Assembly (NCBI GenBank): GCA_051294905.1
Contig: CM119372.1
Location: 15,316,001 to 15,380,000 of the forward strand
Direction of reading: 5' to 3'
Length of the DNA: 64,000 nt
Source: Botryllus schlosseri
Lineage: Eukaryota
Positions 9,685 through 47,514 of this stretch are shown here, piece after piece (position 1 is the stretch's first letter; every line of letters begins with the position of its first letter). The position numbers were made by a program, and so were the translations under genes. Under the pieces are notes generated by a model. It saw only the letters and a list, made by a program, of their open reading frames with translations, made no database searches and was not told where the DNA came from.

Positions 9685-12600
9685 AGTAGTATAGTCGATC
9701 GCTCGCATGCGGCTATGGGGTTCTTATGGGCCCGCTGGTGAGGTGCCGCGAAACTCGTATTGGTGATGGCACCCTTTTGACCCCCCCTTCCGCTGGTGAG
9801 GTGCCATGTATTCTTATGGGATCTCTGGTGATGGTACCCTTTCGGGTATAGGCTTCGTCGGTGATGTGTCGTGAAAACTCGTGTTGGTGAGTCGTACTTT
9901 CAGACCCCTATCGCTCGTGATGTGCCATTGTTTCTTACGAGATCTCTGGTGAGGTGCCATGTGTTCTTATGGGATCTCTGGTGAGGTGCCATGTGTTCTT
10001 ATGGGTGCGGTCGTGATTCGTAGTTTTGGGTATAGGCATCTCTCGCATGGTGTGGAATATGTATCAGGTATGGTAAATAGTCATGTGATTGGATCTTAGT
10101 TAATGTGTATATTCCAAATTACGGCGAGTACGACAATGATATATCGTTATTCTTATGGACGCGGTGATGATTCGTACTTTCAGGCATCTCTCGACCGGTG
10201 TTGAATATGTATCAAGTAAATAGTCATGTGAATGAATCTTTGTTAATGTGTATATCGTGAAAACTCGTGGTCGTGACTCGCCTTTTTTGCTATAGGCGGT
10301 GGCGGTGATTCGCCTGTCGTGTATTCTCACGGGATCTGTGGTGACTCGCCATGTGTTCTTATGTGTGCGGTCGCATGCGGCTATTGCGTCTTATGGCGGG
10401 GGTGGCGAGCGGCTATTGATGCTAACACGAAACCCGGGGTGGCGAGCGGCACTTATTTCTTATGGCGGGGGTGGCGAGCGGCTATTGATGCTAACACGAA
10501 ACCCGGGGTGGCGAGCGGCACTTATTTCTTATGGCGGGGGTCGCAAGCGGCTCTTATTTCTTATGGCGGGGATCGCAAGCGGCTCTTATGTCTTATGGCG
10601 GGGCGGCATGCGGCTATTGCGTCTTATGGATGCGGCGATGATTCGTACTTTCGGGTATAGGCGGCGTGCTAACGTGAAAACCGGGAGGTGGCATGCTAAT
10701 GTTTTTAGGTACACGCGCGGCGACATGCTAACGATGATAATGTGTCTGTCATGTATTCTTACGGGATCTCTGGTGATGTGCCATTGTTTCTTATGGGTGC
10801 GACGGCATATCGTACTTTCGGATATAGGAATCTCTCACACGGTGTTGAATATGTATCAAGTAAATAGTCACGAGTATCGCTAAACAGGAAATTCACTAAA
10901 CCGCAGTGCAATGTGCGACTTTGGAAAACAGATGTTCGCGACCGCGTTTTGATATTTCTGACCCACTAAATACATCCGTTTTGGAAACGCGTCCTGTTGT
11001 GAAGATTTCGAGCGCGCACTATCGTATCGATTATTACACTAATCCAGTCAGTACTATTACATGCAGGAGTATTCAGTATTCAGCAACGACACGAAAAGCG
11101 ACCAACAAATAACCGCACTCGTAAATTAACACCTTAAAAAGTGTAAAATAGATTGCAAATCCCGCGATCGCTAACAAGATAATGGCTCTGGCATAACCAT
11201 TTTTAGTGACTTGGTGTTAAAGACATACCGATCGCTCACAAGGTAATATTTCGGTAATTAGTTTGTCACAGAACCGTCACAGTCGGTGATTCGAAAACCA
11301 ACAATTTGACACTTTCTGGTGGTCGCTATATGTTTTGACACTTCGGAACGCGGTTGACTTTAGTTGCGTGATACAAATCATGAGAATATTCAATCAATGT
11401 GTCAATTTGTCAACTTGAAATGTAACTCACTACACAAATCAAGTTGAATCGTATTTGAATGTATTGATTCGACCCGACTCAAATCCTTTGACAAATCCTA
11501 TTAACGCGATCTGTTGAATCGAACGTAACCTGAATATTACTGACGCCAACATTCACCCGCATCGGATCATTCACACATTCCACGCCGCTGTTTTAACACT
11601 TATAGAATCAATACCAACTATCTCTAACCCGATAATATTCAATCATTTTGGTAATTTGCCAACTTTAAATCCATTCGCGGGATGTACTAAAGGTAAATCC
11701 AAATAATCCAGAATGAAATATTTGGACTTTGACATTGCGTGAATTGAAATAGGTTTGACAAACATGACTACCAACTTTCACCCAGTCACATTTCAAGATT
11801 ATACTTTGAAACAATCCTTGAAACTGACAACTCTATTCACGACTCCGTTTCCGTTTGTAAAATAGAGTTTCAGAAATACTATCACTATGACAACTCAACA
11901 TTTTAACATCTCGCCATGCACAAACGAGTAAAATACAAAAACCTTGGTAAGTCAATCCGTTTGTAGTAACTCACCAAACCAAAACAAAAAGTGTCCGTAT
12001 GAAAAGTAGACAAGACTACGCGAGTAATCACTACAACCCACACAGTTGTATCCATATCCCATATTTTTTATTCAACTGTAAGATGAAGTAATTACTACTT
12101 GGCGCGCGACTTGAGATTAACACATTACATTTGAGTATACGAGATTTGAATGTCTGACCAACGTAGTTGAGAATTCTTACAATCGAACGCAGGTGTTATA
12201 TTGAAAATTTTCACGAATTGACACATTGATTTTGACATATGAGATTTTGTAATAGTCGATCATGACTTGATTATTAAATTATGATATTATTAGACCAGGT
12301 TGTGTTGAAGGTTATTACTATACCAACAAACTTTTCAGAAACATTGTTATTAACATATCGATTTGTAAAACTAGATTAACATGTCTGAAATGTTTTGATT
12401 GGGAAGATTAAGCCGTGTTCGTAAAAACCACGCAGCGTATTGTGGAAATCAGGAAATAATTTACAAATGTAATTGTCTCCAGTAACCAAGACTAAAGATG
12501 AAACAACAATTTTCTTTGTTGAACAATAACCGGTACAATACTTTATCGTCGTAATCTGCGGTGGGAATTGAAACACTTTCGCACATTTCCCGGTGTCAAG

Positions 12601-14400
12601 ATATCACACTAGGTGAATTGACATATCGCCGCTTGATTAATGCTTAATCCGTTCGCGCCATTTCACACACTTTGATCATTACAAAAGAAAAATTGGAATA
12701 TGTTTGCTAGATGCATTCAATTCAGTTAGAAATGTCTGGTACACAACAATCGTAATATCAATGAAGTACTTGCTACACTGTAATTCACTTAACGTGTTTT
12801 GCATTGTTGTTCATTTGTAGTATTGATTGTTTTTGAACCCCCAAATAATAATTCCCCGACATGAAACCAAACCGCTGAAAGTCGTTACCATCACAACGAA
12901 ACAATTTGTACGATGTTTGCCAAATGTATCCTATAGTTAGGTGTACTAGAATTATTTGTCTAACACATACACCGACAATGCAATCGAAAATTTTTCCGTT
13001 GTCATTCGCTAGAGTAAATGTCATCACAATACTCTGTCACTAAAAGACGTTACTTGTATGTGATTGAATCCCTAACAATTATCTCACTAAACCGAACTCC
13101 AAAGAAATTTTACTCACTCGACGGATATGAAACAGCGTCGCTTAATCGGTCTATATCGTTTTTCTAAAGGTAAATCATATCCATCCAATAGAAAACAATT
13201 TTCACTAGCTTGGTAATGAAACCGAAGTCTTCATTCGATATTTTGTTTGTGTCAAATACTTTGTAATAAACACATTTGAGTGGTTGAGCTTTACATCATC
13301 AAGCTGTTATTTGTAAATCAAGATTTCGGTAAACTTGTAAATGTATCGTTTAACTAACCGACATTTAGTGATTGGCGAACATACCAAACGATACACACCC
13401 ATCTCCGAAATACTGCATTGATCTTAATTTCCACCATCGTGATAATCGAAGTACATTTCTTTCGAATTCGTAACAACCGACTACGACACGATAAATTTTT
13501 TACAAGTTACGCTTAGAAGATTGGTTGCATATCGCGAAAAAAATAATATACCACTCATATTGGTACTGTTACTCCATTGATCGATATTTTCAAACGAGTA
13601 AAATTTATTACTTGAGTTTCTCCGCTTAATGTAAATGAAAACTCAGCCGTCTTTTAACATCACAAAGACATTGATAAAAAGTAGGCAATCAAACACAACA
13701 CTTTGTACGACACTAATTATTGTTCCACACATCTCATTTCATACTAAGTGTACACGAAAGATATTCATGACACATGAAAATATTCGCTCATGCTACGAAC
13801 ATACGCAATGATTGGTGGTGCTTCCAAACTGTTTCGATATCACAAGACCTTTATTGTCTGAATGGGTGTTCATGTATCTTAATAATCAAATAGTTCAACA
13901 CAGAACTAGAACTAGTACTAACAGAAACATCACAGAGTTGTTTACACAAAAGTTTGTATATGTGCACAGTATGCGAATACCATGTGTAAGTCCAGCACAA
14001 TTGCGATATCCATCCGAGTTTAGTTAACACAAATTTATTACAACGGAGCCACGTAAACTTTCGTGAAAGAAAAGCATACTCACTCCCAGAGGGTTATGTC
14101 AATGCCATAGCAGTACCCCAACAACAAAGTACATATGTTTCTAGTCACGGTCCTTACATCTTTCACTTAGATCAGGGGTGGGCAAACTACGGCCCGCGGG
14201 CCGCATGCGGCCCGCCACACCGTTCTGTGCGGCCCGCGAGAGTCTAAAGAAACTTTTTAAAAATATTGATAAAATCCGTACTAAAAATCGAATAAATGCA
14301 GGGACTTCAATAAACTTTTTCTTAGTTTATTTCACCATGATAATTTGAAGACAGTGGCTCTAAAACTGGGGTGCGCCCCCTCGACTGAAAAATTTTTTCG
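9685..14400 (+). repeat. E1 left arm of 4.7-kb inverted repeat
   Basis: Reverse complement of 17648-22375 except a 12-bp deletion near 12042 and a handful of substitutions. Confidence 0.97.
9700..10870 (+). repeat. E1 subterminal patchwork of short repeats (mirrored at about 21190-22360)
   Basis: Recurrent motifs TTCTTATGGG, GGTGAGGTGCC, CGTACTTTCGGGTATAGG, GTGAAAACTCGT; a 69-bp unit duplicated at about 10390-10540. Confidence 0.9.
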
Positions 14401-15268
14401 CGCTTCGCGCGATTCTCGTTCACGTCATGATTGTTGCTGTGTATTTAGTCTAAATTTCATATTGAAAAATTCCTGATCCACATTCGTAACCTTCCGTGCC
14501 ATCTAACTATCTGTTAGGTTTGCTAGCACCCAATAGTTGCGTTTTGTGATATGACGATAAGGGTGGCGCGAAATTTTTCACCATCATAAGGGGGGCGTGT
14601 CTCAAAAAGTTTGAGAGCCACTATTTTAAGGTAAATACTTCCTTACTTTATGTTTAATTTCTGGCGCGACAGCCCGATCTCAAGGCCCACGCAGTTTGAA
14701 AGGTTTCAACTATATATACTAAACATCACAGAAATCCTAAACGAGATTGATGTAACTCGGATAACTCGGATAACTTCAGTTTTAATTATTTCAGTGATGT
14801 GCTTATACAAACGATTTACGCGTGTCTTAGGTAGATTCGTTCTCTGTATGTGTAGAATTGGGGTATTTATATTTTATCCACACATCGTAGATGGGTGTTT
14901 GAAGCTAACATGGTTATGATGCTGTGAGTATTGTGTGTCCTGGAACTGAACCAAAAGTGGAATTAGTAAATCTATGAACAGATCGCTGCTCATAGATTTA
15001 AATTCCAATCCTGTTCTAAGAATCGGGACAACCGATTTTCATCTATATAGTTTTGACAAATTGGTTATTGAAGTCGACCAGCCAATGAAATCTCGCCATG
15101 TTTCTGACGTGTGTACGATATCATCAAAGCAATGTTTGTTTTGTTTTAAATAGGAACATATATAATCTCCATGTCCTCACTATATAATCTCAATTTTATA
15201 CAATGTGGCCCGCGAATGAATTTAGATGTTGAATGCGGCCCGCGAGCTCAAAAGTTTGCCCACCCCTG
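14173..15268. mobile_element. hAT MITE inserted in E1
   Basis: TIR CAGGGGTGGGCAAACT / AGTTTGCCCACCCCTG; perfect TSD ACTTAGAT (14165-14172, 15269-15276); the homologous E2 site (about 36443-36470) is empty. Confidence 0.95.
14352..14623 (-). mobile_element. Small hAT MITE nested in the 14173-15268 MITE; same family as 47515-47834
   Basis: CAGTGGCTCT...AGAGCCACTA ends; reverse complement aligns with 47515-47660; degenerate TSD TTTGAAGA/TTTTAAGG. Confidence 0.8.
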
Positions 15269-16029
15269 ACTTAGATCAATCTACTTTGCTAACGAAAAGT
15301 GCTGAGTCATCACATGATCGCTCTCACAACAAAACAGCTAGTAGATATTATCATTCAAAATATTCCTAACCCTTTACACACCAGTAACAAATCATACAAC
15401 GAATATGTTTTGTGGGTCGAATTGTTGTTCAGTGTCAAGTCTACCTGTTGAAACGTACATTAAAACAACACAGTCACAATCAAATTAAAACCACGAATCT
15501 ATTTTCATTTCCTCGCAAACTGTCACATACAGAAAAATAAATTTAATTTCCCAAAACATACTTGTAACCAATCGCTTTCATTAAACACACAACACCATAA
15601 TAGTATTTACTTTCTACAACATAGACATTCCGGTGTAGTCAAGAAATATTTTTAATAGTCAAAATCATCGACATCTGTTTACGGTGCTAGTGTGTGCATG
15701 TCATACATGTGGGCCCGTATTAAAATGGACACGACACGACTGACTGTAAGGAGATAGAAGTCTATCGCATAGATTTACATGTGGTCTTCGCTACGGTTTC
15801 AAAAAACGAATCATCTCTTTTGCATTGATCTAGACCGAGCAAGTTAGTTAATGACCATGATTGTGTTTGTCATATGTGAATGATAGGGTTACTGTCAAAT
15901 CTACATACAACAATCTTCTGACGATCATAATAGCAATTTCATTTTCCGCCCCTTCATAATTGTACAACTCGGTAACTACGTTTAACAAGACCAATCACAC
16001 TACCAGCGTTGAACACAAGATACCTACCC

Positions 16030-16430
16030 AAGTAAAATTATCATTTTCACCTAGAGGTCCACCGTCACCTAACTAAAATACCATTGTCCTTTGGAGATTT
16101 ATCGTTTACCCAGTGTAACAATCCCCTTTTCACTTGGAAATCTATTTTTGTCCTGGATAACAAACCTTTTTCACTTGGAAATATATTTTTTCTCTTGGTA
16201 ACAAACCTTTTTCACTTGGAAATATATTTTTTCTCTTGGTAACAAACCTTTTTCACTTGGAAATATATTTTTTTTCCCTGAGCAACAAACCATTTTCACT
16301 TGGCGGGTCGTCGTTTACCTTAATAAAAATATCATTTTCCTTTGGAGATCCGGCGTTTACCTAGTGTAACAATAAATTTTCTCTTGGTCATCTAGCTTTT
16401 CCTAGAGTAACAAAACCATTTTCATTTTGA
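16030..16430 (+). repeat. Degenerate 41-bp tandem array in E1
   Basis: Units like AACAAACCTTTTTCACTTGGAAATATATTTTTTCTCTTGGT, about 10 copies. Confidence 0.9.
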
Positions 16431-17647
16431 AATCTGACAAACACACCTGACAATTTGGTATTTGTTGTATTGACGATAGTTTGAAATAGATTACAACGAA
16501 CAGTGACGGAAATATACACGGACTACCGGTTACAGAGTATATACCTCCATCAGTCGTATCACATCAATATCATCGGTTAACCACATACAATATACTCTTG
16601 TACACAGAAATGTATGTTTCGGAAAATTGGACAATAGGCTTCGATAGTTCTGTGATGTCCGGGTTCGTGCTTTGGATTTTCCAGAGTCAAAATGTCTGAA
16701 TAAAACACCTCCTCGACGATGGTTGGTATGTGGATAACGGTGTTCGGAAAACGGTTGGATTTATGTTACCCATCGTGATAACAACTCCAGGTCGAGTTTT
16801 CCCCCCTGCATGTTTACTATATTGTGTCTTTATTGGTCAGTGTATGTCTCGACATTCAGTTTGAAATCGGAAACCCTGATAAAGTACGTAACCGGATCCG
16901 GATATCAACTCTGAATCGATAAACCAATGAACAATATTCAAAGTAAACATGTTACACCCTGTGTTTCCACGAAAAAAAAAAACCATCCACACATACGTCG
17001 CGCTTGTTTGCCCACAACAGTATACGCGTAAATGGAGGTGTGTGACATTGCATGCAATGTGTTGGTATACAAACATCGGGGAGTAAGCCTTCGATCCACA
17101 GACATTATCATAGCCGGTAGTTTTGATGTAGATCGAATGTCATCACACCCGATAACAATGTCATACCAATAAGCCACATTGCAATGACTCTGAGTCAATC
17201 TGAAGCAGGACATACAGACACCGTTCACTGATTTACTCGATTGTTTTATCGCGTTGTAACATTACAAGATAGTCATGACCCTAGCTCCGGACAGACGTCC
17301 CAGATCAATTGGATACATGGGTCAATATCCATCGTGTTGTCGAGACCGAAGTTTTCTGCTGAGACTGCAGCGTTTCACCAATGTGAACTATCGAAGTACG
17401 GTGCTTGAAATGATTGTGATCAGTCTTTCAGTCACGATGCAAGGATGTCGCTACTCCCACATAACGACTCCAGATAAATATCGTGAACAGTGATTCTGAA
17501 AATCTCGGACTGATACTGTGATCCAATAAGGTATGTTTCTGTGGAATGAAGACTGCAATCGTACACCACAATAGAACACTACCTCGCGATTTCACACACA
17601 ATCATAAAACACATCATCGTAAGGGTCCAGTTCGTCCGGCAACATTT

Positions 17648-17875
17648 CGAAAAAATTTTTCAGTGGAGGGGGCGCACCCCAGTTTTAGAACCACTGTCTT
17701 CAAATTATCATGGTGAAATAAACTAAGAAAAAGTTTATTGAAGTCCCTGCATTTATTCGATTTTTAGTACGGATTTTATCAATATTTTTAAAAAGTTTCT
17801 TTAGACTCTCGCGGGCCGCACAGAACGGTGTGGCGGGCCGCATGCGGCCCGCGGGCCGTAGTTTGCCCACCCCTG
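17648..17875 (-). mobile_element. Truncated mirror copy of the nested hAT MITE (one TIR plus one TSD copy)
   Basis: Reverse complement of 14173-14400, followed by ATCTAAGT (reverse complement of the TSD). Confidence 0.95.
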
Positions 17876-20800
17876 ATCTAAGTGAAAGATGTAAGGACCG
17901 TGACTAGAAACATATGTACTTTGTTGTTGGGGTACTGCTATGGCATTGACATAACCCTCTGGGAGTGAGTATGCTTTTCTTTCACGAAAGTTTACGTGGC
18001 TCCGTTGTAATAAATTTGTGTTAACTAAACTCGGATGGATACCGCAATTGTGCTGGACTTACACATGGTATTCGCATACTGTGCACATATACAAACTTTT
18101 GTGTAAACAACTCTGTGATGTTTCTGTTAGTACTAGTTCTAGTTCTGTGTTGAACTATTTGATTATTAAGATACATGAACACCCATTCAGACAATAAAGG
18201 TCTTGTGATATCGAAACAGTTTGGAAGCACCACCAATCATTGCGTATGTTCGTAGCATGAGCGAATATTTTCATGTGTCATGAATATCTTTCGTGTACAC
18301 TTAGTATGAAATGAGATGTGTGGAACAATAATTAGTGTCGTACAAAGTGTTGTGTTTGATTGCCTACTTTTTATCAATGTCTTTGTGATGTTAAAAGACG
18401 GCTGAGTTTTCATTTACATTAAGCGGAGAAACTCAAGTAATAAATTTTACTCGTTTGAAAATATCGATCAATGGAGTAACAGTACCAATATGAGTGGTAT
18501 ATTATTTTTTTCGCGATATGCAACCAATCTTCTAAGCGTAACTTGTAAAAAATTTATCGTGTCGTAGTCGGTTGTTACGAATTCGAAAGAAATGTACTTC
18601 GATTATCACGATGGTGGAAATTAAGATCAATGCAGTATTTCGGAGATGGGTGTGTATCGTTTGGTATGTTCGCCAATCACTAAATGTCGGTTAGTTAAAC
18701 GATACATTTACAAGTTTACCGAAATCTTGATTTACAAATAACAGCTTGATGATGTAAAGCTCAACCACTCAAATGTGTTTATTACAAAGTATTTGACACA
18801 AACAAAATATCGAATGAAGACTTCGGTTTCATTACCAAGCTAGTGAAAATTGTTTTCTATTGGATGGATATGATTTACCTTTAGAAAAACGATATAGACC
18901 GATTAAGCGACGCTGTTTCATATCCGTCGAGTGAGTAAAATTTCTTTGGAGTTCGGTTTAGTGAGATAATTGTTAGGGATTCAATCACATACAAGTAACG
19001 TCTTTTAGTGACAGAGTATTGTGATGACATTTACTCTAGCGAATGACAACGGAAAAATTTTCGATTGCATTGTCGGTGTATGTGTTAGACAAATAATTCT
19101 AGTACACCTAACTATAGGATACATTTGGCAAACATCGTACAAATTGTTTCGTTGTGATGGTAACGACTTTCAGCGGTTTGGTTTCATGTCGGGGAATTAT
19201 TATTTGGGGGTTCAAAAACAATCAATACCACAAATGAACAACAATGCAAAACACGTTAAGTGAATTACAGTGTAGCAAGTACTTCATTGATATTACGATT
19301 GTTGTGTACCAGACATTTCTAACTGAATTGAATGCATCTAGCAAACATATTCCAATTTTTCTTTTGTAATGATCAAAGTGTGTGAAATGGCGCGAACGGA
19401 TTAAGCATTAATCAAGCGGCGATATGTCAATTCACCTAGTGTGATATCTTGACACCGGGAAATGTGCGAAAGTGTTTCAATTCCCACCGCAGATTACGAC
19501 GATAAAGTATTGTACCGGTTATTGTTCAACAAAGAAAATTGTTGTTTCATCTTTAGTCTTGGTTACTGGAGACAATTACATTTGTAAATTATTTCCTGAT
19601 TTCCACAATACGCTGCGTGGTTTTTACGAACACGGCTTAATCTTCCCAATCAAAACATTTCAGACATGTTAATCTAGTTTTACAAATCGATATGTTAATA
19701 ACAATGTTTCTGAAAAGTTTGTTGGTATCGTAATAACCTTCAACACAACCTGGTGTAATAATATCATAATTTAATAATCAAGTCATGATCGACTATTACA
19801 AAATCTCATATGTCAAAATCAATGTGTCAATTCGTGAAAATTTTCAATATAACACCTGCGTTCGATTGTAAGAATTCTCAACTACGTTGGTCAGACATTC
19901 AAATCTCGTATACTCAAATGTAATGTGTTAATCTCAAGTCGCGCGCCAAGTAGTAATTACTTCATCTTACAGTTGAATAAAAAATATGGGATATGGATAC
20001 AACTGAGTTGGTATGTTTGTGGGTTGTAGTGATTACTCGCGTAGTCTTGTCTACTTTTCATACGGACACTTTTTGTTTTGGTTTGGTGAGTTACTACAAA
20101 CGGATTGACTTACCAAGGTTTTTGTATTTTACTCGTTTGTGCATGGCGAGATGTTAAAATGTTGAGTTGTCATAGTGATAGTATTTCTGAAACTCTATTT
20201 TACAAACGGAAACGGAGTCGTGAATAGAGTTGTCAGTTTCAAGGATTGTTTCAAAGTATAATCTTGAAATGTGACTGGGTGAAAGTTGGTAGTCATGTTT
20301 GTCAAACCTATTTCAATTCACGCAATGTCAAAGTCCAAATATTTCATTCTGGATTATTTGGATTTACCTTTAGTACATCCCGCGAATGGATTTAAAGTTG
20401 GCAAATTACCAAAATGATTGAATATTATCGGGTTAGAGATAGTTGGTATTGATTCTATAAGTGTTAAAACAGCGGCGTGGAATGTGTGAATGATCCGATG
20501 CGGGTGAATGTTGGCGTCAGTAATATTCAGGTTACGTTCGATTCAACAGATCGCGTTAATAGGATTTGTCAAAGGATTTGAGTCGGGTCGAATCAATACA
20601 TTCAAATACGATTCAACTTGATTTGTGTAGTGAGTTACATTTCAAGTTGACAAATTGACACATTGATTGAATATTCTCATGATTTGTATCACGCAACTAA
20701 AGTCAACCGCGTTCCGAAGTGTCAAAACATATAGCGACCACCAGAAAGTGTCAAATTGTTGGTTTTCGAATCACCGACTGTGACGGTTCTGTGACAAACT

Positions 20801-22375
20801 AATTACCGAAATATTACCTTGTGAGCGATCGGTATGTCTTTAACACCAAGTCACTAAAAATGGTTATGCCAGAGCCATTATCTTGTTAGCGATCGCGGGA
20901 TTTGCAATCTATTTTACACTTTTTAAGGTGTTAATTTACGAGTGCGGTTATTTGTTGGTCGCTTTTCGTGTCGTTGCTGAATACTGAATACTCCTGCATG
21001 TAATAGTACTGACTGGATTAGTGTAATAATCGATACGATAGTGCGCGCTCGAAATCTTCACAACAGGACGCGTTTCCAAAACGGATGTATTTAGTGGGTC
21101 AGAAATATCAAAACGCGGTCGCGAACATCTGTTTTCCAAAGTCGCACATTGCACTGCGGTTTAGTGAATTTCCTGTTTAGCGATACTCGTGACTATTTAC
21201 TTGATACATATTCAACACCGTGTGAGAGATTCCTATATCCGAAAGTACGATATGCCGTCGCACCCATAAGAAACAATGGCACATCACCAGAGATCCCGTA
21301 AGAATACATGACAGACACATTATCATCGTTAGCATGTCGCCGCGCGTGTACCTAAAAACATTAGCATGCCACCTCCCGGTTTTCACGTTAGCACGCCGCC
21401 TATACCCGAAAGTACGAATCATCGCCGCATCCATAAGACGCAATAGCCGCATGCCGCCCCGCCATAAGACATAAGAGCCGCTTGCGATCCCCGCCATAAG
21501 AAATAAGAGCCGCTTGCGACCCCCGCCATAAGAAATAAGTGCCGCTCGCCACCCCGGGTTTCGTGTTAGCATCAATAGCCGCTCGCCACCCCCGCCATAA
21601 GAAATAAGTGCCGCTCGCCACCCCGGGTTTCGTGTTAGCATCAATAGCCGCTCGCCACCCCCGCCATAAGACGCAATAGCCGCATGCGACCGCACACATA
21701 AGAACACATGGCGAGTCACCACAGATCCCGTGAGAATACACGACAGGCGAATCACCGCCACCGCCTATAGCAAAAAAGGCGAGTCACGACCACGAGTTTT
21801 CACGATATACACATTAACAAAGATTCATTCACATGACTATTTACTTGATACATATTCAACACCGGTCGAGAGATGCCTGAAAGTACGAATCATCACCGCG
21901 TCCATAAGAATAACGATATATCATTGTCGTACTCGCCGTAATTTGGAATATACACATTAACTAAGATCCAATCACATGACTATTTACCATACCTGATACA
22001 TATTCCACACCATGCGAGAGATGCCTATACCCAAAACTACGAATCACGACCGCACCCATAAGAACACATGGCACCTCACCAGAGATCCCATAAGAACACA
22101 TGGCACCTCACCAGAGATCTCGTAAGAAACAATGGCACATCACGAGCGATAGGGGTCTGAAAGTACGACTCACCAACACGAGTTTTCACGACACATCACC
22201 GACGAAGCCTATACCCGAAAGGGTACCATCACCAGAGATCCCATAAGAATACATGGCACCTCACCAGCGGAAGGGGGGGTCAAAAGGGTGCCATCACCAA
22301 TACGAGTTTCGCGGCACCTCACCAGCGGGCCCATAAGAACCCCATAGCCGCATGCGAGCGATCGACTATACTACT
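17648..22375 (-). repeat. E1 right arm of 4.7-kb inverted repeat
   Basis: Mirror coordinate sums are 32060 (outer) and 32048 (inner); the match breaks at 14400/17648. Confidence 0.97.
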
Positions 22376-25025: not shown

Positions 25026-25074
25026 GTTTAACGTTGCGACCCACCACCAGAAGTGGTCACTGGTAATACAATAC

Positions 25075-30248: not shown

Positions 30249-30453
30249 TTTGCGGTAGTCAAGCCGCAGTAACAAACATTCGTGTTTGTCGGAATAGCCA
30301 ATACCAGGCCAACATACTCGCATTGAAGCAGGCATCGCGCTACGACCATGTCCCCAATGACGGAGTACTCGTCCATGAATGCGCGGAGATTATTAGGCTT
30401 GCGATAGCATCCAATCACCGACTTTTCGTTCACAATATTGGCAAGCGGACCAG
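30249..30453 (-). CDS. WSCD-like exon: second WSC domain
   Basis: IGCY...CLLQC...LA...CYCG cysteine pattern; splice phases (1 to 2) join both neighbouring exons in frame. Confidence 0.88.
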
Positions 30454-30986: not shown

Positions 30987-31186
30987 CTGGTTTACACTGT
31001 GATTTCACTAGGTATACCATCGTTAGGTCTCTGTAGCCACCACACATTCTTGATTCATCACCAACGCAAGGTAATTTGCATTTATTTCCACCTTCTTCTA
31101 TGGCGATGAATGCACGGGGATAGTAGCTACAAATACATTCATTTCCGTTTCTTATTCCAGCAAAGACAAATTTCTTCTGCTTCACC
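30987..31186 (-). CDS. WSCD-like exon: C-terminal half of first WSC domain
   Basis: FVFAGIRNGNECICS...CKLPCVGDESRMCGG...MVY is a classic WSC signature; AG/GT, phase 2 to 1. Confidence 0.9.
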
Positions 31187-36600: not shown

Positions 36601-37221
36601 GGTCGAATTGTTGTTCAGTGTCAAGTCTACCTGTTGAAACGTACATTAAAACAGCGCAATTCAATTAAAACCACGAATCTATTTTCATTTCCTCACAAAC
36701 TGTCACATACAGAAAAATAAATTTTATTCCGCCAAAACATACTTGTAACCAATCGCTTTCATTAAACACACAACACCATAAAAGTATTTACTTTCTACAA
36801 CATAGACATTCCGACGTAGTCAAGAAATATTTTTATTAATCAAAATCATCGACTTCTGTTTACGGCGTTAGTGTGTGCATGTCATACATGTGGGATCCGT
36901 ATTAAAATGGACACGACACGACTGAATGTAAGGAGATAGAAGTCTATCGCATAGATTTACATGTGGTCTTCGCTACGGTTTCAAAAAACGAATCATCTCT
37001 TTTGCATTGATCGAGACCGAGCAAGTTAGTTAATGGCCATGATTGTGTTTGTCATATGCGAATGATAGGGTTACTGTCAAATCTACATACAACAACCTTC
37101 TGGCACTCATAATAGCAATTTCATTCTCTCCCTTCGTAATTGTAGACTCACGACAAGTATATTGTACAACTCGACAGCTACGTTTAACAACACCAACGAC
37201 ACTAAACATACGATACCTACC

Positions 37222-37750
37222 CAAGTAAAATTACCATTTTCACTTGGAGGTCAGTCGTTACCTGAGTAAAAATACCGATATTCTTTGAAGATTTATCGTT
37301 TAATCAGAGTAACAAAACATTTTCACTTGGGGGTCTATCGTTTCCAAGAGTAACAAGCCGCCTTTCCTTTGGAAATCTATTTTTTCTCTGGATAACAAAC
37401 CTTTATCACTTGGAAATATATTTTTTTCCCTGAGCAACAAACCTTTTTCACTTGGGAATATATTTTTTCTCTGGATAACAAACCTTTTTTACTTGGAAAT
37501 ATATTTTTTCTCTGGGTAACAAACCTTTTTCACTTGGAAATATATTTTTATCCTACAGCAACAAACCATTTTCACATGGAAAACTACTTTTACCTAGAGT
37601 AACTAATAATTTTCTTTTGGAAATATATTTTCTCCCTGGGTAACAAACCCGTTTCGTTTGGAAAACTATCATTTACCTGAGTACCAATACCGTTTGCACT
37701 TGGAAATCTATCTTTTCTCTAGGTAACAATACCATTTTCGTTTTTGAAAA
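37222..37750 (+). repeat. Degenerate 41-bp tandem array, E2 left arm
   Basis: AACAAACCTTTTTCACTTGGAAATATATTTTTTCTCTGG(A/G)T-like units, about 13 copies. Confidence 0.9.
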
Positions 37751-38581
37751 CTGACAACCACACCCGACAATTCGATATTTTTGTATATTGTTACAACGGG
37801 CAGTGACAAAATATACACCAACAACGACTCCGATACATTTGTGCAATCGCATATTTACTTGTGTTGGTGCATCCCATCAAAATCATCGGTTACCCACATG
37901 CAATGTGCTCTTGTATATCGAAATGTATGTTTGGGAAATTGGACAATAGGTTTCGATAGGTCTGTGATGTCCGGGTTCGTGCTTTGGATTTTCCAGAGTC
38001 AAAATGTCTGAATAAAACACCTCCTCGACGATGGTTGGTATGTGGATAACGGTGTTCGGAAAACGGTTGGATTTATGTCACCCATCGCGATAACAATTCC
38101 AGGTCGAGTTTTCCCCGCATGTTTACTATATTGTGTCTTTATTGGTCATGTATGTCTCAACATTCAGTTTGAAATCGGAAACTCTGATAAAGTACGTAAC
38201 TGGATCCGGATATCAACTCTGAATCGATAAACCAATGAACAATATTCAAAGTAAACATGTTACACCCTGTGTTTCCACGAAAAAATACCATCCAGACATA
38301 CGTCGCGCTTGTTTGCCCACACCAGTATATGCGTAAATGGAGGTGTGTGACATTGCATGCAATGTGTTGGTATACAAACATCGATCCACAGACATTATCA
38401 TAGCCGGTAGTTTTGATGTAGATCGAATGTCATCACACCCGATAACAATACCAATAAGCCACATTGCAATGACTCTGAGTCAATCTGAAGCATGACATAC
38501 AGACACACAAACATGGAACCGTAACATGGGTTATTCGCACGACGGTGAAAGTGAACTATACAGCATATACCAATAGAGCGT

Positions 38582-38863
38582 TCACAGTCGAATATGCGAA
38601 CCACGCACAATCACATACCCTGTTTTTAGTTGGATATGTACGAAACCAATAAATCGATACATTTCTGTTCCTTCTACGTCAATAATACAAGCGTCATTCC
38701 AATGCATCGCTCGAATGTAAGGTTCGTCGGGTGTAAAATCCATGTCAAATAACACCAAAGTGTGCTTTCCGTGTTTTATTATTTCCACCGACGCTTCTTG
38801 TCTGTGTCGTAACACTATGGTGCGGGGAGTTGAAAAACGGTGGATTGTGAAACGGATTGACAT
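38582..38863 (-). CDS. Hypothetical 93-aa protein in the E2 spacer
   Basis: ATG-started MSIRFTIHRFSTPRTIVL...GSHIRL*, protein-like composition, no family recognised. Confidence 0.35.
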   Translation of the reverse strand: MSIRFTIHRFSTPRTIVLRHRQEASVEIIKHGKHTLVLFDMDFTPDEPYIRAMHWNDACIIDVEGTEMYRFIGFVHIQLKTGYVIVRGSHIRL

Positions 38864-40131
38864 GACCAACAGAATCGACGTCAATAACCTTGTGGTGATG
38901 ACAGTTTCAAAATGCTCCGATATGACGAGACCAACCTCGATCTCCTGTGGCGATGACCGTTTCGAAATGTCGCCGGACGAACTGGACCCTTACGAAAGTG
39001 TGTAATATGCTTGCGTGTGAAATCACGAGGTAGTGTTCTATTGTGGTGTACGATTGCAGTCTTCATTCCACAGAAACACACCTTATTGGATCACAGTATC
39101 AGTCCGAGATTTGCACGATATTTATTTGGAGTCGTTATGTGGGAGTAGCGATATCCATGCATCGTGAATGAAAGACTGATCGCAATCATTTCGAGCACCC
39201 GTACTTCGATAGTTCACATTGGTCAAACGCTGCAGCAGAAAACTTCGGTGTCGACAACACGACGGATATTGACCGATGTATCCAATTAATCTGGGTGGTC
39301 TGTCCGGAGATAGGGTCATGACTATCTTGTAATGTTACAACGCGATAACACCATCGAATAAATCAGTGAACGGTGTCGAGATATCGATGTCATAGCGCGG
39401 ACTCAGAGTCATTGCAATGTGGCTTATTGGTATTGTTATCGGGTGTGATGACATTCGATCTACATCAAAACTACCGGCTATGATAATGTCTGTGGATCGA
39501 TGTTTGTATACCAACACATTGCATGCAATGTCACACACCTCCATTTACGCATATACTGGTGTGGGCAAACAAGCGCGACGTATGTCTGGATGGTATTTTT
39601 TCGTGGAAACACAGGGTGTAACATGTTTACTTTGAATATTGTTCATTGGTTTATCGATTCAGAGTTGATATCCGGATCCAGTTACGTACTTTATCAGAGT
39701 TTCCGATTTCAAACTGAATGTTGAGACATACATGACCAATAAAGACACAATATAGTAAACATGCGGGGAAAACTCGACCTGGAATTGTTATCGCGATGGG
39801 TGACATAAATCCAACCGTTTTCCGAACACCGTTATCCACATACCAACCATCGTCGAGGAGGTGTTTTATTCAGACATTTTGACTCTGGAAAATCCAAAGC
39901 ACGAACCCGGACATCACAGACCTATCGAAACCTATTGTCCAATTTCCCAAACATACATTTCGATATACAAGAGCACATTGCATGTGGGTAACCGATGATT
40001 TTGATGGGATGCACCAACACAAGTAAATATGCGATTGCACAAATGTATCGGAGTCGTTGTTGGTGTATATTTTGTCACTGCCCGTTGTAACAATATACAA
40101 AAATATCGAATTGTCGGGTGTGGTTGTCAGT

Positions 40132-40700
40132 TTTCAAAAACGAAAATGGTATTGTTACCTAGAGAAAAGATAGATTTCCAAGTGCAAACGGTATTGGTAC
40201 TCAGGTAAATGATAGTTTTCCAAACGAAACGGGTTTGTTACCCAGGGAGAAAATATATTTCCAAAAGAAAATTATTAGTTACTCTAGGTAAAAGTAGTTT
40301 TCCATGTGAAAATGGTTTGTTGCTGTAGGATAAAAATATATTTCCAAGTGAAAAAGGTTTGTTACCCAGAGAAAAAATATATTTCCAAGTAAAAAAGGTT
40401 TGTTATCCAGAGAAAAAATATATTCCCAAGTGAAAAAGGTTTGTTGCTCAGGGAAAAAAATATATTTCCAAGTGATAAAGGTTTGTTATCCAGAGAAAAA
40501 ATATATTTCCAAGTGAAAAAGGTTTGTTACCCAGGGAAAAAATAGATTTCCAAAGGAAAGGCGGCTTGTTACTCTTGGAAACGATAGACCCCCAAGTGAA
40601 AATGTTTTGTTACTCTGATTAAACGATAAATCTTCAAAGAATAACGGTATTTTTACTCAGGTAACGACTGACCTCCAAGTGAAAATGGTAATTTTACTTG
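40132..40700 (-). repeat. 41-bp tandem array, E2 right arm (one extra unit)
   Basis: Accounts for the 41-bp shift in mirror coordinates. Confidence 0.9.
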
Positions 40701-43700
40701 GGTAGGTATCGTATGTTTAGTGTCGTTGGTGTTGTTAAACGTAGCTGTCGAGTTGTACAATATACTTGTCGTGAGTCTACAATTACGAAGGGAGAGAATG
40801 AAATTGCTATTATGAGTGCCAGAAGGTTGTTGTATGTAGATTTGACAGTAACCCTATCATTCGCATATGACAAACACAATCATGGCCATTAACTAACTTG
40901 CTCGGTCTCGATCAATGCAAAAGAGATGATTCGTTTTTTGAAACCGTAGCGAAGACCACATGTAAATCTATGCGATAGACTTCTATCTCCTTACATTCAG
41001 TCGTGTCGTGTCCATTTTAATACGGATCCCACATGTATGACATGCACACACTAACGCCGTAAACAGAAGTCGATGATTTTGATTAATAAAAATATTTCTT
41101 GACTACGTCGGAATGTCTATGTTGTAGAAAGTAAATACTTTTATGGTGTTGTGTGTTTAATGAAAGCGATTGGTTACAAGTATGTTTTGGCGGAATAAAA
41201 TTTATTTTTCTGTATGTGACAGTTTGTGAGGAAATGAAAATAGATTCGTGGTTTTAATTGAATTGCGCTGTTTTAATGTACGTTTCAACAGGTAGACTTG
41301 ACACTGAACAACAATTCGACCCACAAAACATATTCGTTGTATGATTTGTCACTGGTGTGTAAAGGGTTAGGAATATTTTGAATGATAATATCTACTAGTT
41401 GTTTTGTTGCTAGGCCAATCACTTGATGACTCAGCACTTTTCGTTAGCAAACTAGATTGATTTGTGTGTAAGATGTAAGCACCGTAACTAGAAAACATAT
41501 GTACTCTGTTGTTGGAGTAGCTGATTTACTGCTATGGTGTTGACATAACCCTCTGGAAGTGAGTATGCTTTTCTTTCACGAAAGTTTACGTGGCTCCGTT
41601 GTAATAAATTTGTGTTGACTATACTCGGATGGATACTGCAATTGTGCTGGACTTACACATGGTATTCGCATACTGTACACATACAAACTTTTGTGTAAAC
41701 AACTCTCTGATGTTTCTGTTAGTACTAGTTCTGTGTTGAACTATTTGATTATTAAGATACATGAACACCCATTCAGACAATAAAATTCTTGTGATATCGA
41801 AAGAGTTTGAAAGCACCACCAATCATTGCGTATGTTCGTAGCATGAGCGAATATTTTCATGTGTCGTGAATATCTTTCGTATACACTTAGTATGAAATGA
41901 GATGTGTGGAACAATAATTAGTGTCGTACAAAGTGTTGTGTTTGATTGCCTACTTTTTATCAATGTATTTGGGATGTTAAAAGACGACTGACTTTACATT
42001 TACATTAAGCGGAGAAACTCAAGTAATAAATTTTACTCGTTTGAAAATATCGATCAATGAAGTAACAGTATCAATATGAGTGGTATATTATTTTTCGCGA
42101 TATGCAACAAACCTTCTAAGTAAACTTGTCAAAAATTTATCATGTCGTAGTCGGTTGTTACGAATTCGAAAGAAATGTACTTCGATTATCACGATGATGG
42201 AAATTAAGATCAACGCAGTATTTCGGCGGTGGGTGTGCATCGTTTGGTATGTTCAGCAATCACTAAATGACCAAAATATCAAACTGTGCATACAACTCGG
42301 TTAGTTAAACGATAGAGTTACAAGTCGGATGTAATCTCGATTTACAGATGACAGCTTGATGATGTAAAGCTCAACCACTCAAATGTGTTTATTACAAAGT
42401 ATTTGACGCAAACAAAATATCGACTGAAGACTTCGGTTTCATTACCAAGCTAGTGAAAATTGTTTTCTATTGGATGGATATGATTTACCTTTAGAAAAAC
42501 GATATAGACCGATTAAGCGACGCTGTTTCATATCCGTCGAGTGAGTAAAATTTCTTTGGAGTTCGGTTTAGTGAGATAATTGTTAGGGATTCAATCACAT
42601 ACAAGTAACGTCTTTTAGTGACAGAGTATTGTGATGACATTTACTCTAGCAATGACAACGGAAAAATTTTCGATTGCATTGTCGGTGTATGTGTTAGACA
42701 AATAATTCTAGTACACCTAACTATAGGATGCATTTAGCAAACATCGTACAAATTGGTTCGTTGTGATGGTAACGACTTTCAACGGTTTGGTTTCATGTCG
42801 GGGAATTATTATTTGGGGGTTCAAAAACAATCAATACTACAAATGAACAACAATGCAAAACACGTTAAGTGAATTACAGTGTAGCAAGTACTTCATTGAT
42901 ATTACGATTGTTGTGTACCAGACATTTCTAACCGAATTGAATGCATCTAGCAAACATATTCCAATTTGTTTTTTGTAATGATCAAAGTGTGTGAAATGGC
43001 GTGAACGGATTAAGCATTAATCAAGCGGCGATATGTCAATTCACCTAGTGTGATATCTTGACACCGGGAAATGTGCGAAAGTGTTTCAATTCCCACCGCA
43101 TATTACGACGATAAAGTATTGTACCGGTTATTGTTCAACAAAGAAAATTGTTGTTTCATCTTTAGTCTTGGTTACTGGAGACAATTATATTTGTAAATTA
43201 TTTCCTGATTTCCACAATACGCTGCGTGGTTTTTACGAACACGGCTTAATCTTCCCAACCAAAACATTTCAGACATGTTAATCTAGTTTTACAAATCGAT
43301 ATGTTAATAACAATGTTTCTGAAAAGTTTGTTGGTATCGTAATAACCTTCAACACAACCCTGGTCTAATAATGTCATAATTTAATAATCAAGTAATGATC
43401 GACTATTACAAATCTCATATGTCAAATCAATGCGTCAATCCTTTTGTCCACAGCATGATAACTTTGAATATAACACCATCGTTCGATTGTAAGAATTCTC
43501 AACTACGTTGGTCAGACATTCAAATCTCGTATACTCAAATGTAATGTGTTAATCTCAAACCGCGCGCCAAGTAGTAATTACTTCATCTTACAGTTGAATA
43601 AAAAATATGGGATATGGATACAACTGAGTTGGTATGTTTGTAGGTTGTAGTGATTACTCGCGTAGTCTTGTCTACTTTTCATACGGACACTTTTTGTTTT

Positions 43701-44286
43701 GGTTTGGTGAGTTACTACAAACGGATTGACTTACCAAGGTTTTTGTATTTTACTCGTTTGTGCATGGCGAGATGTTAAAATGTTGAGTTGTCATAGTGAT
43801 AGTATTTCTAAAACTCTATTTTACAAACGGAAACGGAGTCGTGAATAGAGTTGTCAGTTTCAAGGATTGTTTCAAAGTATGATCTTGAAATGTGACTGGA
43901 TCAAAGTTGGTAGTCATGTTTGTCAATATATTTCAATTCACGCAATGTCAAAGTCCAAATATTTCATTCTGGATTATTTGGATTTACCTTTAGTACATCC
44001 CGCGAATGGATTTAAAGTTGGCAAATTACCAAAATGATTGAATATTATCGGGTTAGAGATAGTTGGTATTGATTCTATAAGTGTTAAAACAGCGGCGTGG
44101 AATGTGTGAATGATCCGATGCGGGTGAATGTTGGCGTCAGTAATATTCAGGTTACGTTCGATTCAACAGATCGCGTTAATAGGATTTGTCAAAGGATTTG
44201 AGTTGGGTCGAATCAATACATTCAAATACGATTCAACTCGATTTGTGTAGTGAGTTACATTTCAAGTTGACACTTTACCAAACGAT

Positions 44287-44901
44287 ATGGCATCGAACAG
44301 CATCATTAACACTATGCAAGTCGGAGCCGCTTCAAATTTTCACGTCGGCGTCAAATTCGTCTCATCACCCAAAAGAGGTGGCGTTAGCCAATATATCAAA
44401 GGTATATTCATCGACGGTAATAACGAAGAGATATCTTTCACGTGTTTCAATCGTGAATTGTTCGGGGTCGTTGAGAAAGCATTCTCCAGACGAAAAAAAC
44501 TCATGGTCAAATCCGGTTGGATCCAAATTGACAAATTTACTGGAAAACCTGCTGTATTACTGGGACGGGCTTCGTCAGTAACCATACATGGAAAATCGAG
44601 ACATACGACTGAAGAATACCCATTATTGACCTGTGAATCGGTATACGGAAATAAAGATGAATACGTCTCGATCGCCGCTACTTGTGTTTCTCGAGAGGAG
44701 AAGATGGTCAATTCTGGTGCCGGAAAGGAGTTGAAATTACACAGTTTTACATTGAAGGATGATACTGGTGAGGTGGTTTTGGATCAATGGAACAAAGCCT
44801 CGCTCGTACCCGGGAAGAAATATCAACTCACTCGTGTTAAAAACTGTGTCGGCAGATTGAAAATCGATCAGTTAACTAGACTTGTCGAATTGAAAGAATA
44901 G
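44287..44901 (+). CDS. Putative tandem OB-fold (RPA-like) ssDNA-binding protein, 204 aa, copy 2
   Basis: Identical translation to 33021-33635. Confidence 0.68.
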   Translation: MASNSIINTMQVGAASNFHVGVKFVSSPKRGGVSQYIKGIFIDGNNEEISFTCFNRELFGVVEKAFSRRKKLMVKSGWIQIDKFTGKPAVLLGRASSVTIHGKSRHTTEEYPLLTCESVYGNKDEYVSIAATCVSREEKMVNSGAGKELKLHSFTLKDDTGEVVLDQWNKASLVPGKKYQLTRVKNCVGRLKIDQLTRLVELKE

Positions 44902-47514
44902 TTTGCATATTTGTATATCGCAATACAATATTTCATTTCACGTAAATGTATGACCTATGTGATTCGACAACTGGGTTAGCGCGGTGTTGTTCTACTGATC
45001 GAGGTGTGAAAATTGTGCTATCGCGATGAATCTGTGACTATGAACAGCAGACTATTTTGTAGGCGCGAAACAGTGAATAAGCCGAAAATATTATTCAGGT
45101 AGCAATCAATAGCGAGGAAAGAGAGAACACGATCGGTCATTTGATACGACTAAACTACGACATCATATATCATAATTTACGATCAAACTATTTCGCACTG
45201 AATGGAATAGTGTAATAATCGATAGTAGCGGCTGGACGAGAAATAATTCAGCGCACAGGTCATTCGAAATATAGGTCGCACGCACTGCTTAATCCTCACG
45301 ACAAACCACGTTTCCGTTTGCGCGGTTATTGTTGGTGACTCGTACATATTCAACACCGCGCGAGAGATGCCTGAAAGTGCGAATCACGACCGCACCCATA
45401 AGAACACATGGTGAATCACCACAGATCCCGTAAGAATACACGACAGGCGAATCGCCGCAACCGCCTATAGCAAAAAAGGCGAGTCACGACCACGAGTTTT
45501 CACGGCGAATCACGACCGCGGCCTATACCCGAAAAGGCGAATCACGACCGCACCCATAAGAACACATACCGAATCACCAACACAGCCTATACGCGAAAGT
45601 ACGACATGCGAAAGTACGATGTGCGAGAGATGCCTACACCCGAAAGTACGATATGCCGACGCACCCATAAGAACACATGGCACCTCACCACCCCCGCCAT
45701 AAGACACAATGGCACCTCACCACCCCCGCCATAAGAGATAAGGGTCACCTCACCACCCCCGGTTTTCAGGCACCTCACCACCCCGCCCATAAGAACCCTA
45801 TAGCCCGTCACGACCGATCGACTATACTACTCACAAGTACAGGTGAAAACATCCACCCAATGGTAGGGACTGGGGGTGAAGCCCCCGGAAGTTTGACTTA
45901 TCGCCCTGTGGGGATCCCAAGACCAGCGTCTTTGGGGATGGGCTGACGAAGTGCTTTTTCGGCTCGGATTTGCGGATGGGCGGTATAGCTGCTGTAATGT
46001 GTTTTCTTGCAGCACGCATTGTATTCGTATAGGTAGTTGCCAGAGTAGCCTGCGTCTGGTGGCAGTGGGCAATGAGCAATGTAGCACGACAAGGTGCTTG
46101 GTTCGACTCCGATACCCTTCATCGCTCGATATTGTCAAAGAGAAGACTATTATTAGAGTTGGCGTGGTCGGTTAAACCGACGGCCTTCGGCGCGAAAGAC
46201 TGTAAAGGACTCTCGGCGGTAGCACGTTTATCTGGACAAGGCAATTTTACCTCGACTCGGCAGACTCACTACCATAAAATCACGTGGATGCCATCATGAA
46301 TATAATTAAATACGATCAAAACCCTCTAAATATCGCTCTCTAGCACCATATAATTGCAAAAAACGGTTGCATACTTTACATTTTGGCTTCATTTCAATTT
46401 TGAAAGTTCACCGGTCCGCCAGACATTTTTTGAATTTTTACCGGTCCGCGAGGTGAAAAAGGTTGAGAACCACTGACCTAAATTACTTATGTTACTTGAA
46501 TGTACCTGTGTTTATTGGTTATTCCTGTTAGTGCTATACCGCAACGCCACTAAATACTATCGGAGTTGATGAGACATTTGACTTTGTGCACTAACTCGGC
46601 TCATTAGTGCTCAAACTCACATATGAGAATTGAACAATTGGCAGCTTTGCGTGCTAATAGCGAGCTCCTGGAGAATCAGCAGTGTGTTATCCTCTACAAA
46701 TGTACTTCAAAGTTTGTTAAAAAACGAAATCAGTCAGATATTAAACAACCGCTCGAGTTTAAACCTGTTAATGCATTGCAGTTGCACCAATGACGTAAAA
46801 AAGATTTATATTAGACAAACTTACATTGATTCACACTGCACCTATTATTTTTGCTATTCATACCTTCCGAGAACTCCGTATCTACTTTTCACACTACATG
46901 AGCATTGTCCAAGCCTACTCTTTTCTATTTCTACTTGAAGTAGTTTGGACAAGTTTTGGGGATTGCTGTTCATACTTTAACTTGATTTAGTCACAATAAC
47001 TACAGGTTCAATACTTGTGGTAATATTGACATGATCTAAAATTTAATTCTGTCGATCATGAATGATGACACTCGTCACGTATGGCTGTCGACCCGGCATG
47101 AGCAATTGAACATGAAGTGTCAAATATGTTCCAGCGCAGTGGTCCCCAAAGTGGTTGCCAACGCCCCTGTATGTGTTAGCGACCTGGAATATGGCGCTCG
47201 CTACAAACAGAGCGATGAAGGATGGCGTTCTGCGCTATAGAAATATGTTTGGGAAATCCGTCAATCAATAGTTCCGTTTGTGCGCTGTGAACATGTATAT
47301 GTATTGTATATGTATATATATGAATATGATTTTGGTCACGTCTTTCGCGACGTACAAAGCGTATCCAATCGGACATGGTCATTAGTCAGCATCGTACTGC
47401 ACGGATGTTAATTGTTATGCAACAATCAGTTTTCTAACCAATAAATTAATAAATAAATAAATCAAATACCGAACAGAATTATATTAGCCAGCGAGGTCTT
47501 TCGAGCGGCTAGAG

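Follow-up and report, generated by a model that had tools for sequence, protein, structure and literature searches.

A stretch of 64,000 nucleotides of the Botryllus schlosseri genome (GenBank assembly GCA_051294905.1, contig CM119372.1, positions 15,316,001 to 15,380,000; hereafter the window) contains two insertions, elements A and B, each built largely of two long inverted arms, and raises the question of what kind of element takes such a form, how its palindromic layout arose and what keeps its arms alike. Together with the steps of propagation proposed below, we consider it probable that A and B belong to a large family, active at present, of Polinton/Maverick derivatives that are non-autonomous and whose terminal inverted repeats (TIRs) cover nearly the whole element; they are termed here foldback Polintons. 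An earlier reading of the same stretch, made without database searches (the sequence-only reading), had taken them for defective copy-back genomes of such an element, each integrated as a whole palindrome.

Two palindromic insertions and their ends

The window holds exactly four copies of the 17-base terminus AGTAGTATAGTCGATCG, located at 9685 (+), 22375 (-), 32091 (+) and 45831 (-), against a chance expectation of 0; they bound element A (9685-22375) and element B (32091-45831), two insertions of ~13 kb that are each flanked by a perfect 6-bp direct repeat, or target site duplication (TSD). The two insertions, with their common terminus and their own TSDs, had been recognised in the sequence-only reading and are confirmed here in the following layout (features given without a strand are unstranded; ORF, open reading frame).

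9679..9684: left TSD copy of element A, AACGCT, read directly from the sequence and equal to 22376-22381
9685..14400: left arm of element A, 4.7 kb, starting with AGTAGTATAGTCGATCG
14401..17647: unpaired centre of element A, 3247 bp, between the inverted arms
17648..22375: right arm of element A, reverse complement of the left arm at 100%, with a single 12-bp indel
22376..22381: right TSD copy of element A, AACGCT, read directly from the sequence
32085..32090: left TSD copy of element B, CACAAG, read directly from the sequence and equal to 45832-45837
32091..38481: left arm of element B, 6.4 kb, with the terminus, subterminal motif arrays, an OB-fold gene, AT-rich DNA and a tandem array
33021..33635, minus strand: OB-fold ORF of 204 aa, predicted tandem OB fold (RPA70-AB-like), common to the right end of the autonomous Polinton
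38482..39399: unique loop of element B, 918 bp, class-1 loop, non-coding, between the inverted arms
39400..45831: right arm of element B, reverse complement of the left arm at 100%, one arm having an extra 41-bp unit
44287..44901, plus strand: right-arm counterpart of the OB-fold ORF in element B, mirror of 33021..33635
45832..45837: right TSD copy of element B, CACAAG, read directly from the sequence

No substitution separates the two arms of either element, over 4.7 kb in A and 6.4 kb in B, in full agreement with the long inverted arms first described. The inverted blocks of A (9681-12042 with 20018-22379, and 12036-14400 with 17648-20012) are each 100% complementary, the 12-bp indel lying between them, and the same is true of those of B (32090-37426 with 40496-45832, and 37363-38481 with 39400-40518), which leave a difference of one 41-bp unit. 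Subterminal arrays of the motifs GGTGAKGKRCC and TCTTAYGG mark the left arm of A, together with 32/69-bp tandem arrays at 10377-10629; in that of B, ~4.8 kb is AT-rich and has no conserved ORF, and a 41-bp tandem array occupies 37307-37739. The GC content of the arm interiors is 34-36%, against ~40% in the surroundings.

A and B had also been described as duplications of the same single element end, a claim that a direct comparison contradicts: their first 92 bp are only 77% identical and their first ~1.6 kb differ, A having tandem arrays and B the OB-fold gene. What they have in common lies further inside, where a block of 2.8 kb is 94% identical; the centre of A shows 81-85% homology to the inner arm and to part of the loop of B-type elements. 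The order of the high-scoring segment pairs of A to B suggests that A is an asymmetric deletion of a B-type palindrome, whose shorter arms would result from the loss of part of the loop and of the inner right arm, with the left inner arm remaining unpaired.

Public contigs placed on 30400-37300 provide direct evidence on the history of B. Three contigs of run X5, which stems from a different sample, run through 32090 and then continue with TACAGGTGAAAACATCCACC, a sequence present once in the window, at 45838-45857, directly after the right TSD copy. Because these contigs join 32090 to the sequence of 45838-45857, the allele of run X5 is the empty B site with a single CACAAG. B entered as one two-ended palindrome and is polymorphic. 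The proposal that an already two-ended molecule was integrated is thus upheld for B, and the accompanying statement that such a molecule was fixed in a germline does not apply to it, since an empty-site allele exists.

The autonomous relative and what the palindromes retain

The assignment to the Polinton/Maverick family, already proposed from the termini and TSDs, is corroborated by a complete Polinton with the same ends at C15:1180015-1195741 (hereafter the helper), which measures 15.7 kb and has an 853-bp TIR and the TSD CCTGTG. Its integrase contains an rve domain (PF00665, E 2.2e-16, 60.4 bits for a cut-off of 32.6) and a C-terminal Chromo domain (E 2.2e-9). Its protein-primed DNA polymerase (pPolB) has at least 886 aa and the motifs KLAGNSSYG and MMDTDS in translation; the C-terminal part matches proteins of 1000-1600 aa from echinoderms, molluscs, cnidarians and others (E 2e-145 to 1e-63), and many of these relatives carry PF03175 or bear the name DNA-directed DNA polymerase. 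A 432-aa ORF of the 'F54H12.2-like' family is, judging by its structural model (pLDDT 88.5), a double-jelly-roll (DJR) major capsid protein, the Foldseek matches being the major capsid proteins of the iridovirus SGIV, PBCV-1, Sputnik and mavirus (E 3e-16 to 1e-11, TM 0.51-0.65). Thus, of the full-length relative that had been predicted, encoding pPolB, integrase, ATPase and capsids, the helper supplies the integrase, pPolB and capsid, and its ATPase matches are weak only. PDB sequence searches with the C-terminal part of PolB and with the OB ORF gave nothing meaningful. In a helper copy at L016:3288-5253 (-), consecutive ORFs of 141, 225 and 301 aa have a common C-terminal pattern, LLRV[IV]...P[YF][YF]F[PA]; these resemble tandem paralogues and may encode penton or minor capsid proteins.

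Of 284 candidate PolB loci in the genome, at least 83 were scored, many with open frames of ~1300 aa, and the helper therefore exists in many copies (a six-frame PF03175 search of the genome found zero matches, as it did in control genomes, and is uninformative). The TIRs of autonomous-like copies measure 557, 749, 782, 790, 853, at least 1000 and at least 1000 bp and are 96.9-100% identical within a copy, and none of six sampled autonomous copies is palindromic at 3 kb. Given these short TIRs, multi-kilobase arms are not the natural state of the autonomous element, in line with the earlier expectation that normal Polinton TIRs are far shorter than the arms. In all 12 elements read (A, B, the helper and others), the TIRs start with AG and the TSDs are perfect and 6 bp long. 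Eight of the 12 TSDs contain CG (AACGCT, TACGGA, GACGCA, TTCGTA, CACGCG, GTCGTA, AACGTA, GGCGAG), which may reflect a weak target preference.

What the palindromes share with the helper is limited to 0.35-1.56 kb per arm, the remainder being non-coding. A matches the helper in its first 352 bp only, at 89% identity and inside the helper's own TIR, and B over positions 265-1560 only, at 92% identity, a segment that spans the helper TIR and the OB-fold gene; the latter sits just inside the right end of the helper and at no other helper end. The GGTGAKGKRCC and TCTTAYGG arrays occupy the same offsets in the first ~500 bp of the helper and of the palindromes, for a background of 0 per kb. The view that the arms are a duplicated helper end is therefore not borne out, since the match covers so little of A and B. 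Loss of the core genes, by contrast with that view, is confirmed: when 16 helper ORFs were compared by tblastn with the window and with nine other elements, only the OB gene was matched, in two of the 10 non-autonomous elements searched (B and one other; nine of the 10 are palindromic with arms above 4 kb), and neither this search nor the ORF survey found pPolB or integrase encoded by A or B. Apart from the OB gene, B has no ATG-initiated ORF of at least 100 aa, and no frame in the rest of its arm exceeds 135 aa; over 9000-46500, scans for Rfam families and tRNAs gave zero matches. Two candidate genes were rejected, a 154-aa ATG-initiated ORF of A that lies in tandem repeats and was taken as spurious, and a 135-aa frame in the B loop that has stops or frameshifts in many copies. 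These comparisons show a common structure, in which the 17-base terminus and ~350-500 bp of subterminal motif arrays are kept, some elements including B keep the OB-fold gene, and the rest is non-coding.

The OB gene differs between B and the helper copy by 14.5 non-synonymous and 13.5 synonymous changes, and the resulting dN/dS of 0.29 indicates purifying selection. Database relatives of its protein are few (one match in one search, three in another). The protein model (pLDDT 60) has two OB barrels, for which Foldseek returned RPA70 domains A-B, Teb1, HIN-200 and baculovirus LEF-3 (E ~1e-7), and protein-atlas leads point to OB-fold/RPA families. A role as a single-strand DNA-binding protein is a reasonable lead for this candidate.

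Copies, loops, arms and lengths across the genome

With at most one mismatch, the terminus occurs 290+304 = 594 times in the 495-Mb assembly, against 3+1 times for the reversed control pattern. Ten elements were fetched for the ends best matching those of A: seven have arms of 4.1-7.2 kb at 98.9-100% identity, and the other three are a nested element of 21.5 kb, the helper and a short element of 3.3 kb. A second, less biased sample comprised every one of the 40 further +/- pairs formed by the first 100 exact termini along the genome, each compared over the 600 bp located 3.0-3.6 kb from either end. These segments are reverse complements at 98.9-100% in 27 of the 40 pairs, 19 of them at 100%; among the 13 other pairs, six match helper genes, one carries a PolB of a 73%-identity subfamily, two, read in part, are palindromic with an off-centre loop and four are unclassified. 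The two long off-centre pairs had been considered as autonomous variants with arm sequence at one end, which was rejected as the parts read belong to the palindromic family and contain no Polinton protein. Including A and B, the palindromic family accounts for 31 of 42 pairs; extrapolated to ~297 pairs, this would amount to ~200 palindromic copies and ~0.5% of the genome, an estimate and not a count.

Two members of the first sample depart from the common form. The nested copy (C2:28391982-28413504, TSD GACATA) reads arm-loop-partial arm-partial arm-loop-arm, a double fold-back with repeats 99.9-100% identical, and suggests that new strand switches or arm-arm rearrangements still occur. The 3.3-kb derivative (C1:19317205-19320506, TSD TTCGTA) has the same ends and no inverted repeat of at least 400 bp, from which we conclude that short non-palindromic derivatives exist but are rare.

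Loop classes were defined from the central 1.8 kb of 27 palindromic copies. Eleven loops of 820-987 bp are 85-94% identical to the B loop over its full length, five of 969-984 bp are partly similar only (~75%), and six are exactly 339 bp long, with base-identical arm/loop junctions and loops that differ from each other by 1-10%. The other five comprise loops of 182, 265 and 375 bp, one unclear case and one copy without an inverted repeat in range. Since the junctions are base-identical in diverged copies with 339-bp loops, and since loop classes are common to many copies, the fold-back points are inherited. The palindromic layout is shown to have arisen a few times and to have been inherited since, in at least three loop classes, contrary to the suggestion that each fold-back was an independent event. 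The loop of B has at least 41 full-length matches at 90% identity or more in the genome (with only 40 of 1004 candidates scored), three of them ~100% identical; together with the empty-site allele of B, these three show that the family is active now or was very recently.

The two arms of a single copy agree at 98.9-100% over 4-7 kb, whereas between any two of nine fully read copies only 23-96% of the arm aligns, at 78-93% identity. Copies of one loop class differ at the median by 5-12% over the loop and by 6-8% over the inner arm; at 3 kb, where they can be aligned, the figure is 7-21%. Arms that evolved independently would differ about as much as copies do, and one arm must therefore have been repeatedly rewritten from the other. 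The TIRs of the autonomous element behave likewise, being ~90-93% identical between copies and near-identical within them, and the simplest reading is that the arms behave as giant TIRs under whatever process equalises Polinton TIRs. Other protein-primed replicons offer copy-back cases in the repair of adenovirus inverted terminal repeats and in the inverted chimeras of phi29.

The lengths of the copies also fall in a narrow band. Of 93 listed pairs, covering three terminus variants, 54 measure 12.5-15 kb. Among the palindromic copies sized, 33 of 36 fall between 12.7 and 14.7 kb, and the 27 sampled have a median of 14,043 bp, a narrow range despite arms of 4.1-7.2 kb and measured loops of 182 to 5133 bp; helper-like copies are 14.9-16.5 kb long, with one of 20.9 kb. 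Short derivatives (3.3, 8-9.6 and 11.9 kb) are rare (7/93). Thirteen copies from different loop classes lie within 14,037-14,120 bp, and exact lengths recur (14,120 bp three times; 13,093, 13,741 and 14,043 bp twice each), giving six coincident pairs, and 3 of 5000 jittered simulations gave as many; the three copies of 14,120 bp are not sister copies. Non-autonomous DNA transposons usually become shorter. In this family, 80-95% of the helper length is retained by means of stuffer DNA, which would fit a capsid-size constraint.

The distribution and surroundings of the elements call for a few separate remarks. A and B are 9.7 kb apart, two family copies on C11 (C11:11776013-11799285) are separated by 54 bp, and a further cluster is found at C4:12062501-12083844; ~300 copies in 495 Mb would average a spacing of 1.6 Mb. 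The chromodomain of the helper integrase could bias insertion sites. The left flank of B (31324-32090) is highly repeated, its contig word depth exceeding that of the unique flank by a factor of thousands, so that B landed within or next to another repeat. The interval between A and B contains an open frame of 218 aa rich in lysine and glutamate (23353-24009, minus strand) and a 148-bp tandem repeat of three units (24467-24917), which presumably belong to the host or to another repeat.

Propagation, rival explanations and known systems

The palindromes could be propagated as follows. Co-resident autonomous Polintons with the same ends, which make the same 6-bp TSDs, would replicate and integrate them in trans. 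During protein-primed replication, the arms would be equalised by the process that keeps Polinton TIRs identical, either through self-annealing of a single strand that has been displaced or excised or through copy-back by a nascent strand, and each new insertion would thus begin with matching arms. Total length would be kept just under that of the helper, as expected if the DNA must fit the helper capsid.

Several points weigh against this account. Trans-mobilisation, packaging and the homogenising step are all inferred, and the helper does not account for 3-5 kb of the DNA in each arm. The palindromic fraction comes from 42 of ~297 pairs, classified by 600-bp samples. The annotation of the helper is uneven: the direct Pfam score of its PolB is 19.1 bits, under the cut-off of 25.8; its P-loop ATPase-like ORF has weak matches to AAA_14 (3e-5) and Pox_A32 (0.0035), both under their cut-offs; and for its protease ORF neither Pfam (E up to 0.01) nor a PDB sequence search gave a meaningful match. 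Most of the 164 reads found in one bulk RNA-seq run fit only partly and, over the OB gene, carry the letters of other copies; none of these 164 reads contains a spliced joint. Lastly, because autonomous TIRs are likewise 96.9-100% identical within copies, the match between arms is due in part to the youth of the insertions, and chromosomal gene conversion remains a serious competitor as its cause. Assembly polishing of the repeat could slightly inflate the exact value of 100%, although it could not turn an arm identity of 90% into 99%.

The account of trans-mobilised foldback Polintons can be carried one step further, to a possibility that we put forward tentatively and regard as rather less likely than not to hold in full: the palindromes may be the satellites of a polintovirus, a counterpart of the defective-interfering DNAs that occur naturally, which would replicate via a near fully self-paired hairpin strand that rewrites one arm in each cycle and which would have to fit the helper capsid. 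If this were true, the tight length band, with its sharp mode at 14,037-14,120 bp common to several loop classes, would be the first genomic read-out of the packaging limit of a Polinton virion and would also be evidence for a single-strand 'racket' intermediate.

Among the rival explanations, the one that survives best, though we judge it unlikely, is arm-to-arm gene conversion in the host chromosome, which would act on inserted copies and hold their arms identical as happens in the palindromes of sex chromosomes, with no role for replication of the element. Such a process would accord with palindromic arms that have a median of 0 mismatches in the 600-bp samples and 0 to ~11 per kb along their entire length, compared with 0-27 per kb (median ~3) for autonomous TIRs. 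Yet B is young, being polymorphic and having three ~100% identical loops elsewhere, and its arms already match; the autonomous TIRs, 14 kb apart, are near-identical within copies and different between copies; and some palindromic copies show an arm divergence of 1-4% in places.

Improbable in our view is the explanation put forward by the sequence-only reading, in which each palindrome is an independent copy-back (snap-back) defective genome, formed de novo by a polymerase strand switch on the helper and then integrated. The layout is that expected of copy-back products, and the OB gene, found only at the right end of the helper, is present in both arms of B, which suggests that both ends of B descend from one helper end; the nested 21.5-kb copy, with identities of up to 100%, also suggests that new strand switches occur. 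However, the helper match is confined to 0.35-1.56 kb per arm, the junctions are base-identical in six copies whose loops are 1-10% apart, and 16 further copies fall into two other loop classes, whereas independent switches would scatter the fold-back points. Copy-back as the origin of each single copy is therefore largely refuted.

It is very improbable that A and B belong to the Foldback-type (MULE- or P-related) transposons, with ends that only look like those of Polintons and with another transposase as their mover. In Drosophila FB and Galileo, as here, inverted repeats that are long and internally repetitive do surround a short unique centre. FB transposons have a 9-bp TSD, and the TSD and termini of the FB/MULE type are not those of A and B, in which the 17-base terminus (with single-base variants among copies), the subterminal arrays and the 6-bp TSD are the same as in the autonomous Polinton; B shares 1.3 kb at 92% identity with the latter, including a gene, and neither the ORF survey nor tblastn with the helper ORFs found a transposase remnant in A or B. 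Least credible of all is an assembly artefact (chimeric long reads, or collapsed or duplicated haplotypes), for although inverted chimeras are a known artefact of long-read libraries and none of the listed public contigs spans the whole of 30400-37300, the copies lie inside at least 16 large contigs, their flanks are unique, all 12 elements read have a perfect 6-bp TSD, the loop classes are conserved, and an independent sample has a precise empty B site.

On this evidence, the palindromes are an inherited, diversified foldback-type lineage with concerted arms, and not fresh copy-back products. Polinton replication and virion formation in animals are still inferred mostly from gene content, and the palindromic family is natural test material for both, with ~200 gene-poor copies that conserve only the cis-acting ends, the fold-back geometry and the length. 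The match of the arms despite a between-copy divergence of 5-20% points to a step of the life cycle that copies one end onto the other over 4-7 kb, and the narrow length band suggests a physical size constraint. Long perfect palindromes are, moreover, tolerated and polymorphic in an animal genome, where they make up an estimated ~0.5% of the DNA; they are prone to be taken for assembly errors, and Polinton searches that rely on genes easily overlook them. No description of palindromic non-autonomous Polintons was found in the literature searched, which did not extend to Repbase reports, subscription journals or supplements.

Foldback Polintons share with known Polinton/Maverick elements the AG...CT termini, the 6-bp TSD and the TIRs, and their helpers are of 15-16 kb with pPolB, rve integrase, DJR capsid protein and a candidate ATPase-like protein; they differ in that A and B lack the core genes and have TIRs of 4.7-6.4 kb (up to 7.2 kb in relatives), or 75-97% of the element. 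Butterfly polintons have TIRs of ~2 kb that carry genes, according to a 2026 preprint (10.1101/2025.02.07.637071). The Drosophila FB and Galileo elements likewise combine very long, internally repetitive inverted repeats with a short centre and many non-autonomous copies; here, unlike in FB and Galileo, the ends and the 6-bp TSD are those of a Polinton integrase and the arms are mostly unique rather than tandem repeats throughout.

A further parallel may be found in symmetric adenovirus-host recombinants and in the copy-back genomes of protein-primed viruses. The Ad12 SYREC is called symmetric in the title of a 1981 paper and is said to consist of a viral terminus and non-viral DNA in an inverted duplication of a size near that of the genome. 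SYREC is an Ad12-host recombinant and helper-dependent (PMC2396429). SYREC and the copy-back genomes resemble the present elements in having an inverted duplication of a viral terminus with attached non-viral or non-coding DNA, near genome size, and in a dependence on a helper that would hold here as well. They differ from the present family, in which ~200 copies are integrated in the germline as diversified lineages that retain unique loops and in which packaging is presumed. In the 'racket' model of Kapitonov and Jurka, as summarised in 10.64898/2026.07.28.741278, the TIRs of a single strand anneal before pPolB copies the strand. The annealing stage would pair the whole of each arm in the palindromic elements; the model was proposed for short TIRs, whereas foldback Polintons would fold almost completely, which makes its predictions testable.

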